From Candidatus Omnitrophota bacterium (GTDB taxonomy: Bacteria; Omnitrophota; Gorgyraeia; JABMRG01), in assembly GCA_030593065.1 (NCBI GenBank), contig JAUVHV010000002.1:33003-97002 (forward strand): a stretch of DNA of 64,000 nucleotides, given 5' to 3'. Position numbers and translations under genes: made by a program. Below the pieces are notes generated by a model, which ran no database searches, was not told where the DNA came from, and worked only from the letters and a program-made list of their open reading frames with translations. Positions 13,175 to 57,240 of this stretch are shown here, piece after piece. Position 1 is the first letter of the stretch; each line of letters opens with the position of its first letter.

Positions 13175-13325
13175 CATAAAAACTGCCTTCTCTTCTCTCA
13201 TCTAGACTATACTATTGGCAAAGGAATCACACCTTTTCTGCCCTGTTAAAGGCTCGTCGGCTTTACGACCAGTAGGGAATTACGCCCTATCCCGAAGACG
13301 AGATAAGTATACCATAAACTTCAAA
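13175..13325 (-). promoter_or_regulatory. FMN riboswitch (RFN element) aptamer in the leader of ribBA-ribH-nusB
   Basis: Minus-strand sequence CTTCGGGATAGGGCGTAATTCCCTACTGGTCG ... GCCAATAGT ... AGTCTAGATGAGAGAAG matches conserved RFN blocks. B. subtilis has CTTCGGGGCAGGGTGAAATTCCCGACCGGCGG ... GCCGACAGT ... AGTCTGGATGGGAGAAG. Confidence 0.7.
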
Positions 13326-13388
13326 TCTGTCAAGCGAAAACAAAAAAGTTACCTATAATCTCTCATCCGCTGCCCTCCTCTACGCTGA

Positions 13389-13542
13389 GAGTTTTGGTGC
13401 AGCTTTTGCAGGAACGTGAAATTTTTCCCTGCGAGAAAAATTTCACTCCAAGTTGGCGCTCGCTCTCGCGTAGAACTTAATCAGGGCGAACCATGCCCGC
13501 TCGCACCACCAAGGTCCTGCGTAAGCTGCACCAAAACTCTCT
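13389..13542. repeat. 154-bp element bounded by 19-bp perfect inverted repeats, with a nested inner hairpin
   Basis: Outer arms gagagttttggtgcagctt / aagctgcaccaaaactctc. Inner hairpin gtgaaatttttc ... gaaaaatttcac. The element is intergenic, between the riboswitch and the GGDEF gene. Confidence 0.7.
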
Positions 13543-13673
13543 CTTGAGGGGGCAAGGCTTGTAAGCAAACTCCTCTTGCTGTTTATTAAGAATTGTTCTG
13601 AAAACCAGCTTTTTGAGCAATGAGAACAGAACTTCTTTCTTGCGAGCATTCTCTGGCTTGGGCAAGAAACTAG

Positions 13674-13783
13674 AATATTACTTATGCCTTTGCCTTTAGC
13701 AGCGCATTGGCTTTTTTTGCCCTGAGTGTAAATAGATAGCAAAAATACCTGCGCTGCTAAAGGCAAAGGCATAAGTAATATTC
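13674..13783. repeat. Palindromic ~110-bp element, copy 2 of 3 (33-bp perfect arms)
   Basis: gaatattacttatgcctttgcctttagcagcgc ... gcgctgctaaaggcaaaggcataagtaatattc. Confidence 0.85.
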
Positions 13784-29209: not shown

Positions 29210-29221
29210 TCATCCTCAATA

Positions 29222-29421
29222 GCCACAGACGTTTTAAAAGTTGTTCGGTCCACTGTCCACAAATTGAGCTTTACATTGTACCCTATAAGGACAGATGGTC
29301 GCTATATATATTCATCTGGATTTAAAACAATGTTGGCTCTTGCTTGAAATCTCCTTTTTGAGACACTGTCGTGCTCGAATTGGGGACAGTGTCCCTATTA
29401 AGAATCAAAACGTCTGTGGCT
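29222..29421. repeat. About 200-bp intergenic element with nested inverted repeats
   Basis: Outer inverted repeat ccacagacgtttt / aaaacgtctgtgg. Inner inverted repeat tccactgtcc / ggacagtgtcc. Confidence 0.6.
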
Positions 29422-29509
29422 TTACACGCTGGGAAAAATTTTGTGTTTCTGCGGAATTGCTCAAAAGCTGGCTGTGGGTAACGTTTTATTATGGGTAGGA
29501 CTGTATCTT

Positions 29510-52992: not shown

Positions 52993-53430
52993 CTATTCAT
53001 TAATAAGGTTCTCCGCGATCTCTTCGTATGATTCTTTTGAAGTATCGTAAAACTCTTTCCATGACTCTTTTGCCCAGATCTCAATTCTATTTGATACACC
53101 GATAAAAACCACTTCTCTTTTTATATTCGCATAATCCTTAAGATACGACGACAAAAGAATTCTGCCCTGTTTATCGGCAACTACATCCTGTGCCCCTGAA
53201 AAAAACAGGCGGTTAAATTTGCGATGCTCTGATTTAGTAAAAGAGATAGACCTGAATTTACCTTCCTGCGTCTTCCACTCTTCCTCAGTAAAAACAAAGA
53301 GGCACTTATCAAGGCCACGCGTAATATAAAGTTTTTCCGCGTAAGCCTCTTTTAAGGCCTCCCGAAATTTAGAAGGAATAATCAACCGTCCTTTGCGGTC
53401 TAAACTATGTGCGAACTCTCCATAAAACAT
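52993..53430 (-). CDS. mraZ: Transcriptional regulator MraZ
   Basis: Duplicated SpoVT/AbrB-like halves, the first starting with the DRKGR motif. Confidence 0.9.
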   Translation of the reverse strand: MFYGEFAHSLDRKGRLIIPSKFREALKEAYAEKLYITRGLDKCLFVFTEEEWKTQEGKFRSISFTKSEHRKFNRLFFSGAQDVVADKQGRILLSSYLKDYANIKREVVFIGVSNRIEIWAKESWKEFYDTSKESYEEIAENLINE

Positions 53431-53755
53431 CTCTTAGCCTCTCTCCCCACCGAGAAGGGCCTTAACCTACACCACATCAAAAAACTGTTTCTGCCTCATT
53501 CCTTATCGCCCACCGAGAAGGAATCTATCTTCCCATCAAAAAGGTATTTCTATACTCCACTTTACTCTACTTTCAACCACTTTGTAGTAAATATACACCA
53601 TAATTCCCTTATTGTCAAGGTATTATTTTTCATTTTTTAACATGGATTTAAAAAGTTTTTGATAGGAGGTTAAAATATACTAAATAATGGGGTTATAACA
53701 TATTTGAACTACTACATGTGGGGAATATTACTGAAAAGCTATTTTTAGGAAAAAC

Positions 53756-53829
53756 GAAACTGTTTCCAAACTGTGAGGGACAGTGGGCATGTATGCGCCC
53801 ACTGTCCCTCACAGTTTGGAAACAGTTTC
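53756..53829. terminator. Near-perfect 74-bp palindrome; a probable bidirectional terminator or insulator between the nuclease gene and the dcw promoter region
   Basis: gaaactgtttccaaactgtgagggacagtgggc atgtatgc gcccactgtccctcacagtttggaaacagtttc. Confidence 0.6.
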
Positions 53830-53837
53830 TAGCACTT

Positions 53838-54278
53838 CTACTTAGCCCAGATACCTTTGCCTTCCTGCCTGGCCTTACGTTGAAGTTTCAAAAATTCATC
53901 AGCATATTTTTCATTGGGTGGAAGAATAAGTATCTTGGCGTAACCTTCTTCAACCATCTTCTTATTTATAAATATATCATTTACATATACATATGCGAGC
54001 AATCTTCGATACCTGTCTCTTTCTCGTGCATCAAATTCAAGGCGTACTATTTTTCCGCCGACCAATCCCTGGTTGAAAGCCTTCGCATCCTTAGCAAGAT
54101 ATTCAGCGGGAGGATTCTTATAATTCATCTCAGGGGTATCTATCCCTAAATACCTTACCTTCTCACCGTTTACAAGCCTTATTGTATCACCATCATAAAC
54201 ATAAACAACCCTGGAAGAGTAACCGCCTTGTGGATATTGCAGACAACTGGATAACGAAATCGCCAACTGGATTATCAA
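53838..54278 (-). CDS. Secreted thermonuclease (staphylococcal nuclease homologue)
   Basis: SNase core motifs DGDT ... R ... YVY. Confidence 0.8.
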   Translation of the reverse strand: MIIQLAISLSSCLQYPQGGYSSRVVYVYDGDTIRLVNGEKVRYLGIDTPEMNYKNPPAEYLAKDAKAFNQGLVGGKIVRLEFDARERDRYRRLLAYVYVNDIFINKKMVEEGYAKILILPPNEKYADEFLKLQRKARQEGKGIWAK

Positions 54279-54322
54279 AAAAAATATAAAAAACTTAATA
54301 GCGGGCTCCTAATTCTCTAATA

Positions 54323-55213
54323 TCAGTATGGCATCACGTAGCTCTCTTCATCAACAATATTCATATAATCTTCAAAAGTCATTTGGCCTGTTATCTCCTT
54401 GTTTACATGTGCCTTTCTGGCAGAAAGGTAAGGGTGGGTAAACCAATAGCGCTTTGGCCCGGTCTTTCTTTCCATCTGCCACTGAAGAAGTTTATCAAGT
54501 GCGCTAAGCATGCCTTCAGGGTTATAACCTGCCTTCTTAAGATATTTTACTGCCAGGGCATCCGCCTCAAACTCATCTTCCCTGCTGTTTGCAAGCATGA
54601 GCTGTCCGAAAGCCTCGCCTGCCTTACGGCGTGTATAAGAATCCTTCGCGCCTCTCATAACAAGTATCTGCATAATCTGATAACCAAGGCTGCTCTGAAG
54701 CCTTTTTATACCATGCCTTGCGCAGACATGGCCTACCTCATGTGCTATAATAGCGGCAAGCTCATCATCATCCAACTTTTCAAGCAGTGCCTTAAAGATA
54801 TATACATACCCTCCGGGAAGCGCGAAAGCATTCTCAATATCATCCTTATCAAGTACCTTGAACGTAAAAATAAGTTCTTTCCTGTCAGATACATCCGCTA
54901 TCTTTTTGCCAATCTCCGCGACCTTCTCCTGGTTAAGATAATTCTCATCAAGGTCAAATTTTTCTTCAACCTGCTCAGCTATAGAGCGGCCCATATTTAT
55001 CTCCTTTTCTTTGGAGATAAGAAGGTTTTCTTCCCGGCCTGTAGCAAGATTATATTCAGGGTAAGCGTAATTTGTGATAAAAATAGAAGATAAAACCGAC
55101 AGGCTAATAAACAACTTACTGATATTCATTAACAACCTATTTCTCATGCAGTAAATTAAAAAGCAAGCGCTTATAAGCCGAGTTCTGTTAATTAGCAAGC
55201 GCGTAAGTAACAT
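54323..55213 (-). CDS. M48-family Zn metallopeptidase (probable start at the internal Met, near 55129)
   Basis: HEVGH zinc-binding motif plus a downstream E. The signal peptide reads MNISKLFISLSVLSSIF. Confidence 0.8.
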   Translation of the reverse strand: MLLTRLLINRTRLISACFLIYCMRNRLLMNISKLFISLSVLSSIFITNYAYPEYNLATGREENLLISKEKEINMGRSIAEQVEEKFDLDENYLNQEKVAEIGKKIADVSDRKELIFTFKVLDKDDIENAFALPGGYVYIFKALLEKLDDDELAAIIAHEVGHVCARHGIKRLQSSLGYQIMQILVMRGAKDSYTRRKAGEAFGQLMLANSREDEFEADALAVKYLKKAGYNPEGMLSALDKLLQWQMERKTGPKRYWFTHPYLSARKAHVNKEITGQMTFEDYMNIVDEESYVMPY

Positions 55214-55224
55214 ACACTTGTTAA

Positions 55225-55620
55225 TCAGATGGCCATCTATCTTGTCCTGTCATTACTGGCAGGATCCTTATCCTCTTTAAGGAAAATAGCGACCTAACCC
55301 ACTCCGCTAACTGAGGAACGGACCATTCCTATGGCGGAGCCTATTTGGTCTTGCACCACGTAGAGATTGCCGCGTTTCACATCACGATTAAATGCAATTA
55401 TGCTATAAGAGAGTTTCAGGCCGTCAGGCTCAAATACTCTCATGCGCAAAGCAATAATCGATACTCGTCTCTGTGGCTCTTATCCGTCCCCACTTTTGTT
55501 TTACAAAAATGGGAAGGCGGGCGTTACCCGCTACGCTGTCCTATGGAGCTCGGACTTTCCTCCCCCATAGCTCTACTTAAACAAAGTTAAACATGAGGGT
55601 AGCCATCAAGCGCCTGCTTC
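55225..55620 (-). ncRNA. rnpB: RNase P RNA, bacterial type A (ends approximate)
   Basis: Minus-strand sequence GAAGCAGGCG ... GGGGGAGGAAAGUCCGAGCUCCAUAGGACAGCGUAGCGGGUAACGCCCGCC ... GGUGCAAGACCAAAUAGGCUCCGCCAUAGGAAUGGUCCG. It matches the conserved P4 and universal regions of E. coli M1 RNA (GGAGGAAAGUCCGGGCUCCAUAGGGCAGGGUGCCAGGUAACGCCUGG ... AGCAAGGCCAAAUAGGGG). Confidence 0.8.
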
Positions 55621-56915: not shown

Positions 56916-56992
56916 TGGTAGCGGCGAGTGGAATTGAACCACTGACAACACGGGTATGAGCCGTGTGCTCTAACCATCTGAGCTACGCCGCC
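56916..56992 (-). tRNA. tRNA with anticodon CAU (elongator Met, or Ile2 if lysidine-modified). The 3' CCA is encoded.
   Basis: I folded it manually. The acceptor stem is GGCGGCG / CGCCGCU. The D stem is GCUC / GAGC. The anticodon stem is CACGG / CCGUG with loop CUCAUAC. The T stem is AGUGG / CCACU with loop UUCAAUU. It lacks the initiator-type anticodon stem GGG/CCC. Confidence 0.85.
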
Positions 56993-57138: not shown

Positions 57139-57240
57139 ATCTCTTATGCCTTTGCCTTTAGCAGCGCTTTGGCTTTTTTTGCCATAAATGTAAATAGACG
57201 GCAAAAATACCTGCGCTGCGAAGGCAAAGGCATAAGAGAT
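57139..57240. repeat. Palindromic ~110-bp element, copy 3 of 3
   Basis: atctcttatgcctttgcctttagcagcgc ... gcgctgcgaaggcaaaggcataagagat. Confidence 0.85.

Follow-up and report, generated by a model that had tools for sequence, protein, structure and literature searches.

A palindrome with perfect 33-nt arms between the SNase gene and mraZ of an Omnitrophota bacterium, a member of a small dispersed hairpin-repeat family with terminator-like geometry

Introduction

REPINs are doublets of repetitive extragenic palindromic (REP) units that form hairpins and are mobilised by RAYT transposases, and they have been described in Pseudomonas and Enterobacteria (PMC3116915). Each REP unit bears a GTAG or CGTC tetranucleotide tag at one end (PMC3733652). 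Furthermore, template switching during replication was documented to homogenise the arms of inverted repeats and to invert their spacers (PMC8604942; PMC8794818). Here we describe a palindrome located at positions 53756-53829 of a 64,000-nt stretch of DNA from a Candidatus Omnitrophota bacterium (assembly GCA_030593065.1, contig JAUVHV010000002.1, positions 33,003 to 97,002 of the forward strand; hereafter the window), where it lies between a minus-strand gene for a putative lipoprotein of the SNase/thermonuclease family and mraZ of the dcw cluster. The palindrome is an ordinary kind of element, a small dispersed palindromic intergenic repeat, in a little-studied phylum.

Like REPINs, which are its closest match, the palindrome is made of two conserved inverted units and a less conserved spacer, is predicted to form a long hairpin and shows compensatory changes. 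Its family is likewise extragenic, dispersed and present in several copies in one genome (three intergenic loci in the metagenome-assembled genome (MAG) CAZDLP01), includes single-unit or truncated copies resembling decayed remnants, leaves no target-site duplication and has a short asymmetric motif on one side. It appears to be less abundant than REPINs, with about one copy per 64 kb in the window and three exact copies in one MAG as against tens to hundreds, and it differs from them in its arms, which are 33 nt long and perfectly paired up to an 8-10-nt loop, with no 60-70-nt spacer. The arms end in GAAAC or GACCC on the outside and in GGGC or GGGT on the inside, and have TAAGT as a recurrent flanking motif and no GTAG or CGTC tag. 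In addition, no RAYT was seen among the 14 window open reading frames (ORFs) that were scanned, and the phylum lies outside those with described REPINs. REPIN membership of the family is not established.

The palindrome also recalls miniature inverted-repeat transposable elements (MITEs), for example Correia/NEMIS, RUP and ERIC, in being small and non-coding, in having inverted-repeat ends, in its insertion polymorphism between relatives and its intergenic slots, and in that it can supply terminators or promoters to neighbouring genes. It differs from them in having no target-site duplication at any copy and almost nothing beyond the two "terminal inverted repeats", and no arm pair spanning a coding region, which could represent a parent insertion sequence with the same ends, was present in about 250 kb of fetched loci. 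As in an intrinsic terminator, the hairpin starts 8 nt past a stop codon and has UUUUU within 1 nt on the coding strand; unlike one, it has a 33-bp stem where 5-14 bp is usual, an A-U-rich stem base, a sequence common to unrelated loci and a U-tract on one side only. With the template-switching (Ripley) model (PMC8604942, PMC8794818) it shares homogenised arms, mirrored multi-nucleotide changes and a spacer in both orientations, but template switching is a mutational process and not a class of element, and it leaves the spread to several loci and the constant blocks unexplained. Our literature search returned no description of palindromic repeats in Omnitrophota.

Structure and fold of the palindrome

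The inverted repeat is 74 bp long in all and consists of two 33-nt arms that are 100% complementary, separated by an 8-nt loop; neither the arms nor the centre is assigned to a strand. The left arm (53756-53788) reads GAAACTGTTTCCAAACTGTGAGGGACAGTGGGC, belongs to what we call type A of the family and equals both arms of the copy found in two other fetched contigs (L012 and L023; fetched sequences are cited by L number). The asymmetric centre (53789-53796) reads ATGTATGC on the plus strand and GCATACAT on the gene strand, and the right arm (53797-53829) is the exact reverse complement of the left. Folded alone as RNA, the hairpin reaches -65 kcal/mol. A 121-nt context holding the palindrome folds at -73 kcal/mol, as against -28.3 +/- 3.4 kcal/mol in 200 dinucleotide shuffles (z = -13.06), and 0 of the 200 shuffles folded as well. 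An earlier reading made from the sequence only (hereafter the sequence-only reading) had described a near-perfect 74-bp palindrome between the nuclease gene and the mraZ promoter, with a very stable 33-bp stem and a small loop. The palindrome is real, its placement was right and its stability is confirmed by the fold; "near-perfect" understates the arms, which are perfect, only the 8-nt centre being asymmetric. In a scan against Rfam 15 no family reached its gathering score, and the only matches were to generic miRNA-precursor hairpin models, at 14-42 bits against cut-offs of 62-100. Membership of a known RNA family was rejected on these sub-threshold matches.

A dispersed repeat family

Two types of complete copy can be told apart. 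Type A, that of the window, has the form GAAAC...TGTGA...GGGC, and type B, of the form GACCC...CAAAG...GGGT, differs from it at eight arm positions, all of them mirrored in the opposite arm. A search pattern was built from the blocks common to both types, and exact 21-23-nt patterns were scanned in public genomes. The scan of GTDB representative genomes returned four loci in two MAGs, three of them in CAZDLP01, while a slightly shorter pattern returned 13 loci in JGI metagenomes. A relaxed 18-base pattern gave no matches in IMG/VR, and a phage origin was set aside on that result. The matches resolve into five independent genomic sites, counting the SNase-mraZ site (S1). S2, which lies after a putative rsfS-like gene fragment and before argS, has the outer 10 nt of one arm replaced. 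S3, a type B copy between a gene of 404 aa and aroK, has two mismatches in its arms and lacks a T-tract. S4, between a gene of 235 aa and an AmmeMemoRadiSam radical-SAM gene, is of type A with both arms identical to those of the window (33/33) and has the loop TTTACCTCAT, then GGTTTTATTTTTTG. S5 lies between two pseudopilin genes and has its right arm cut after 13 nt.

CAZDLP01 carries type B at S1 and type A at S2 and S4, so that the types coexist in one genome. The arms of the window copy match both arms of L012, which is at another locus, in 33 of 33 positions, though the SNase DNA of that genome is 78% identical; by a rough estimate, such identity would arise by chance against a 78% background with a probability of 0.78^33, or about 3e-4, per arm. 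A third type was found as single arms. In five contigs of one metagenome (Ga0265297: L014, L016, L018, L022 and L024) a lone type C arm, with the block TGAAT, stands directly after the stop codon of GAF-SpoIIE (PP2C) phosphatase genes, and its outer part is a perfect 21-bp palindrome, GTTTGGAAAC-T-GTTTCCAAAC. We also observed that in four of these five contigs the last codons of the gene (VVMEA…) recur beyond the arm, like a 17-20-bp duplication, and that each of the five arms is close to an end of its contig.

At all five independent sites the motif TAAGT occurs 2-11 nt from one side of the palindrome, and it may be part of the element or a target preference. At the end of the SNase gene it spans part of the last sense codon and the stop. 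The difference between TAAGT and TAAAT at this codon was rejected as a marker of palindrome presence, since L026 has TAAGT and no palindrome. No direct repeat that could be a target-site duplication flanks the palindrome at any of the five sites. Within the 64-kb window, a search with the full arm (up to 3 mismatches, and blastn-short) and a search for degenerate copies (23 specified positions with up to 6 mismatches, each block with at most 1) both returned the palindrome itself only. The sequence-only reading had suggested that the palindrome may be a member of a repeat family, to be checked by a search for additional copies, and this is borne out by at least four other loci in Omnitrophota MAGs and metagenomes. 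The relative that it had pointed to at 29222-29421 did not hold up: the best local alignment score was 10, a score that 47 of 500 shuffles equalled or exceeded, and kinship with this 201-bp inverted repeat (29221-29421) was rejected. There is little room for doubt that the palindrome is a member of a small dispersed hairpin-repeat family.

The surroundings of single copies gave further observations. In three related genomes (L012/L023, L033-36 and L037-40) the S4 slot, between the 231-235-aa and radical-SAM genes, holds three different inserts, namely the 76-bp palindrome, a ~190-bp element with AGGGGACACCCCTGAG inverted ends and a ~390-bp insert, each of them followed closely by a native T-rich tract and by a TAGTGATATAAT box that is conserved and promoter-like. 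The radical-SAM proteins of the two relatives with other inserts are 88% and 84% identical, and the inserts are mutually unrelated. The S4 post-stop-codon slot is an insertion hot spot. In the S5 copy (L021 7246-7330) the cut right arm runs into a perfect TTGACA-17-TATAAT upstream of the duplicated pseudopilin gene, and a promoter may have overwritten the repeat or co-opted it. The L021 flank and the L033 insert were also compared and show no significant similarity. In the S2-type contigs (L019 6730-6842; also L010, L017 and L020) the putative rsfS-like reading frame, running …KKAEDIRILDMQKVATFCDYFVIASAGSSKL, enters the palindrome and ends at a TGA within the arm, which gives it the look of a gene cut short by the repeat. 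The two repeat-bearing GTDB MAGs (records L009-L012) are labelled uncultured Planctomycetia, and their protein homologues are named Candidatus Omnitrophica/Omnitrophota; the Planctomycetia labels are probably coarse or wrong.

Arm symmetry and loop orientation

Across seven distinct copies 97% of the cells are paired and 9 of the 33 pairs are changed on both sides. The covariation score of these copies was reached by 0 of 500 shuffles, and slid controls drop to 31-49% paired. The changes that separate the arms of types A and B (AA>CC, TGTGA>CAAAG and C>T, 8 positions), as well as an A>G in L029, are all mirrored. Types A, B and C share the arm blocks CTGTTTCCAAAC and GGGACAGTGGG unchanged, save for that mirrored A>G in L029, and the 5-nt block that separates these two varies, being TGTGA, CAAAG or TGAAT. 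Intact copies at S1 and S4 contain no G-U arm pairs except a single terminal G-U in L029. The L003 loop agrees with that of the window at 7 of 8 positions after reverse complementing and at 3 of 8 directly, and the loops of L012 and L020, oriented by the TAAGT flank, agree at 7 of 10 positions when one is reverse-complemented and at 2 of 10 directly. Thus, the orientation of the loop appears to flip between copies. Since G-U pairs are almost lacking, 5-nt blocks are exchanged symmetrically and the centre is found in both orientations, the mirrored changes do not cleanly show that an RNA stem is under selection. The arms may further be homogenised by gene conversion from other copies, and L003 looks like a hybrid of types A and B.

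The SNase-mraZ site in relatives

The SNase-mraZ intergenic regions were aligned and the relatives ranked by the identity of their SNase DNA to that of the window. Conservation of the palindrome in relatives, a check proposed by the sequence-only reading, comes out as presence in four lineages (the window, L029, L003 and L006-L009) and absence in five (L002, L004/5, L026-28, L030 and L031/32). In L029 (86% SNase DNA identity) one A>G in the left arm is mirrored by a T>C in the right arm and the loop is ATATACAT. In L003 (88%) 31 of the 33 pairs are kept and the loop is ATGTATAC, and in L006-L009 (78%) the palindrome is of type B and is followed by a separate canonical terminator. L002, the sister of the window in the SNase tree (93%), shows a clean absence of the element, with an empty site, TAA-AATTGA-TTTTCTT, against TAG-AAGTGCTA-(74 bp)-GTTTTTCCT in the window. 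The five palindrome-free lineages have no stable hairpin after the SNase stop and fold at -6 to -12 kcal/mol over 113 nt, as against -66 to -75 kcal/mol at the sites that carry the palindrome. Gene order (M48 peptidase, SNase, mraZ, rsmH) is kept in all related contigs fetched. As five related lineages do without it, the palindrome is dispensable at this site, and the proposed insulation of the dcw promoter is not required throughout the group: these lineages, the closest one included, have no stable hairpin there.

Terminator-like geometry

In gene-strand orientation, the SNase stop codon TAG (53838-53840) is followed by the 8-nt spacer AAGTGCTA (stop and spacer together 53830-53840, minus strand), the hairpin and G-UUUUU-CC, so that the sequence after the hairpin is GUUUUUCC. 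The G and the UUUUU tract directly 3' of the hairpin (53750-53755, minus strand) belong to the flanking DNA and not to the repeat, as the T-tract is also present in the empty site of L002, which retains GATTTTCTT. The S4 copy has the same terminator geometry, with the hairpin followed by GGUUUUAUUUUUUG, and its T-tract is likewise derived from the flank. On the minus strand, then, a stable G+C-containing hairpin and a U-tract stand downstream of a gene, as the sequence of an intrinsic terminator demands, and in the window, L003 and L029 the hairpin is 1 nt from a run of five U. The palindrome is the only terminator candidate in the 407-nt region between SNase and mraZ, in which there is no second hairpin. 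A consensus terminator scanner did not list it, perhaps owing to the limit of 20 stem pairs that this scanner counts.

The sequence-only reading had proposed a strong bidirectional terminator, and only one half of this stands. The gene strand has the geometry of a terminator; on the plus strand UAGCACUUCUAC comes after the hairpin and offers no U-tract. Bidirectional termination is moreover not called for, since all the listed ORFs of at least 100 aa between 29.7 and 64 kb that look real are on the minus strand and no plus-strand gene heads toward the palindrome. Nor is termination a property of the whole family, as S3 and the type B copy at S1 have no adjacent U-tract. On the features of this locus we lean slightly towards the view that the hairpin terminates transcription to a useful degree.

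Origin and function of the repeat

On balance, the palindrome is probably a dispersed REPIN- or MITE-like palindromic repeat that incidentally terminates or stabilises the SNase transcript. Its family consists of small dispersed palindromic repeats of ~74-76 bp in one Omnitrophota lineage, similar to REPINs or to minimal MITEs, each intact copy with two 33-nt inverted arms, a short and poorly conserved centre of 8-10 nt and no target-site duplication, and its copies occupy intergenic slots just past stop codons. The arms are most likely held exactly complementary, and the centre sometimes inverted, by processes acting on the DNA, the candidates being template switching between the arms during replication or gene conversion from other copies, and selection on the RNA stem alone seems less likely. 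The copy described here would have inserted between the end of the SNase gene and a T-rich tract that was already there, with the result that the SNase transcript would end in a -65 kcal/mol hairpin followed by GUUUUUCC. By terminating in one direction, as an intrinsic terminator, and by stabilising the 3' end of the M48-peptidase/SNase transcript, it would lower read-through into the mraZ promoter. Such an effect would be a by-product of where the repeat lies and not a conserved design.

Several points weigh against this explanation. The copy number, one in the 64-kb window and three exact-pattern copies in one MAG, appears far lower than in classical REP or REPIN families. A Pfam scan of 14 window ORFs brought up no transposase domain, RAYT included, and the ORFs beside the type C arms look like ordinary genes when read by eye; since no transposase was found in the ORFs checked, we infer mobility from the distribution of the copies alone. 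Two intact copies have no U-tract, namely L011 and the type B copy in L006, which has a separate canonical terminator after it. The stem has an A-U-rich base (GAAAC/GUUUC) and, at 33 bp, is far longer than typical terminator stems (5-14 bp). Lastly, template switching alone does not account for the constancy of CTGTTTCCAAAC and GGGACAGTGGG, a hint of sequence-specific recognition. A more daring version of the repeat explanation, which we regard as rather unlikely, is that of an active hairpin replicator of Omnitrophota, not described before, with a dedicated enzyme, a RAYT-like HUH transposase or a hairpin-recognising recombinase, that would read CTGTTTCCAAAC and GGGACAGTGGG, insert the element next to TAAGT just past stop codons and have the second arm remade from the first on moving, by hairpin-templated synthesis. 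Such a replicator would account better than occasional template switching for arms that are always perfect, for variants mirrored block by block and for a loop that flips back and forth.

The palindrome might also be selfish or a relic, an element that is no longer active or moves only rarely, is carried as a neutral passenger and does not terminate SNase transcription in any meaningful way. The closest relative and four other lineages have no hairpin and yet share the same highly conserved mraZ regulatory region, other copies are truncated or lack a U-tract, and in genomes of the L006 type the palindrome is directly followed by a separate canonical terminator, as though these genomes did not depend solely on the palindrome. 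Nonetheless, the sole terminator candidate of the 407-nt region, in the window as in L003 and L029, places its hairpin 1 nt from five U, and, on general knowledge of terminators, RNA polymerase should hardly disregard a hairpin of -65 kcal/mol with a U-tract after it; we consider a neutral passenger unlikely, though it deserves to be taken seriously. At the other extreme stands the main idea of the sequence-only reading, a dedicated terminator and insulator kept by selection on its RNA stem and shielding the MraZ-controlled dcw genes from read-through. The position, which directly follows a stop codon and precedes the dcw promoter, the perfect pairing with compensatory changes among orthologues and the U-tract that comes next on the gene strand are what such a device would show. 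However, the same sequence is found at unrelated loci, five related lineages have no palindrome, and the geometry is not bidirectional. In addition, G-U arm pairs are not tolerated in intact S1 and S4 copies, bar the terminal one in L029, and whole 5-nt blocks are changed symmetrically, which argues for DNA-level copying over RNA-level selection (PMC8604942). A dedicated terminator is very unlikely to be the explanation.

A role at the DNA level was also considered, in which the arms are bound by a dimeric or multimeric DNA-binding protein, be it a regulator, MraZ at an auxiliary site, or a recombinase or HUH enzyme that recognises the hairpin. The constancy of CTGTTTCCAAAC and GGGACAGTGGG in types A, B and C around a variable 5-nt block would suit such a site, as would the sub-palindrome GAAAC-W-GTTTC in the arm ends, extended in type C to the perfect 21 bp given above, and the GTGA-N6-GTGG held by type A arms, which resembles two MraZ boxes (box definition PMC12957436). 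The real MraZ operator, however, lies elsewhere, at 53557-53583, with three AAAGTRG boxes at a 10-bp period that are invariant in relatives. Moreover, each arm of type B at S1 has only one GTGG, and most copies of the family lie away from dcw, at unrelated loci. Neither block recurs in the 64-kb window, where a regulon is thus not in evidence, and the analysis brought up no candidate protein. We find a protein recognition site distinctly improbable, and as a MraZ operator, auxiliary or otherwise, the palindrome was set aside save as a part of this reading, having at most one GTGA-N6-GTGG per type A arm while a proper three-box array stands elsewhere. Likeness to integron attC, dif/Xer, protelomerase and parS sites was set aside as well, since core motifs or symmetry requirements do not seem to match (asymmetric centre, no R'/R'' core, half-sites in the wrong order). 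Finally, the palindrome could have been created in amplification or assembly as a fold-back chimera. Multiple displacement amplification chimeras can yield perfect palindromes, and assemblers break at them, as seen in the Logan contig L001, whose sequence is identical to the window and which terminates 30 nt into an arm; a break there is expected of an assembly graph with k = 31 at an inverted repeat. Against an artefact, the palindrome is flanked by different, collinear and conserved genes, and the same or variant palindromes, specific to lineages, occur at this and other sites in independent JGI, ENA and NCBI assemblies. An artefact is effectively refuted, its likelihood being close to nil.

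Neighbouring genes and the mraZ control region

The SNase gene (53838-54278, minus strand; PF00565, E = 5.7e-25) lies upstream of the palindrome, and its homologues carry the NCBI name thermonuclease from Candidatus Omnitrophica/Omnitrophota. In the window its ORF opens only at a TTG and is 146 aa long, whereas homologues have 164-167 aa and an N-terminal lipoprotein-type signal (…LSSC). The region where the start is absent (54279-54322) adjoins a run of eight T, and the short ORF may be due to a frameshift, a sequencing error or an unusual start codon. On the other side of the palindrome, mraZ (52993-53430, minus strand; PF02381) is followed by rsmH, ftsL and a penicillin-binding protein (PBP) gene. 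Further upstream, on the minus strand, an RNase P RNA gene (class A, 143 bits) at 55158-55618 lies between the RNase H-like and M48 peptidase genes, on account of which the ORFs listed across 55294-55590 are spurious, and a tRNA-Met was found at 56916-56992.

A sigma-70-like mraZ (dcw) promoter, TTGACA-17-TATATT (53618-53590, minus strand; 11 of 12 matches), lies outside the repeat. The palindrome is upstream of it on the gene strand, 138 nt from the -35 box, and the promoter-like site is invariant in all relatives with or without the palindrome. In the alignment about 300 nt 3' of the palindrome site are nearly invariant in both groups of relatives, and this stretch contains the promoter, the three AAAGTRG boxes and two CCTTCTCGGTGGG repeats. 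The MraZ operator was defined by direct repeats of a GTG(G/T) box, three or more in number and spaced by 6 nt, close to the dcw promoter (PMC12957436), and the array AAAGTGG-N3-AAAGTAG-N3-AAAGTGG (53557-53583, minus strand; 10-bp period), which begins 6 nt past the -10 hexamer and is invariant in all relatives, fits this three-box definition, save that its middle box is GTAG. The two CCTTCTCGGTGGG copies (gene strand; 53446-53458 and 53509-53521), 63 nt apart in the ~160-nt mraZ leader, each lie within a possible small stem and are invariant among relatives down to 66% SNase DNA identity. They have no Rfam match and may be a conserved leader RNA or a protein site. About 125 nt upstream of the -35 box (53620-53745; CCCCACATGTAGTAGTTC...TATAACCCCATTATTTAGTATATTTTAACC...TATCAAAAACTTTTTAAA) are also almost invariant among relatives, a conservation far above that expected of spacer DNA, which suggests further regulatory sites.

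Other intergenic repeats

The window holds other intergenic repeats. A second palindromic family, a ~100-bp element of the form TCTTATGCCTTTGCCTTTAGCAGCGC..TTGGCTTTTTTTGCC...GCAAAAATACCTGCGCTGC.AAGGCAAAGGCATAAGA, has two copies, at 13673-13783 and 57139-57240, one with perfect 34-nt arms and a 43-nt spacer and the other with 20-nt arms and a 62-nt spacer. Another inverted repeat (13387-13541), with 32-nt arms that are 88% complementary, lies upstream of an FMN riboswitch (13186-13303, minus strand). The repeat at 29221-29421, already mentioned, is a 201-bp MITE-like inverted repeat after a 524-aa ORF, with 59-nt arms that are 73% complementary and the ends AGCCACAGACGTTTT.../...AAAACGTCTGTGGCT. 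The 390-bp S4 insert of L037-40 (L037 1050-1465) has weak but significant similarity to 29435-29472 (E = 3e-7) and 13599-13647 (E = 1.5e-4) of the window, which suggests, at the level of these alignments, a third intergenic repeat family common to the window and the L037-40 genomes.

Conclusions

For annotation, the palindrome should be labelled as a member of a repeat family with terminator-like geometry and not as a conserved dcw regulatory device; the conserved dcw control elements, namely the promoter, the MraZ boxes and the leader repeats, lie downstream of the palindrome and are independent of it. Its arms provide a clean natural case of the concerted evolution of an inverted repeat, with mirrored multi-nucleotide changes and apparent inversion of the spacer, and they call for caution in taking compensatory changes in long perfect hairpins to prove that an RNA structure is under selection. 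Several families of small palindromic elements occupy intergenic DNA in uncultured Omnitrophota and compete for the same slots past stop codons, and if a cognate enzyme exists for the family described here, REPIN-like systems would extend to a new phylum.

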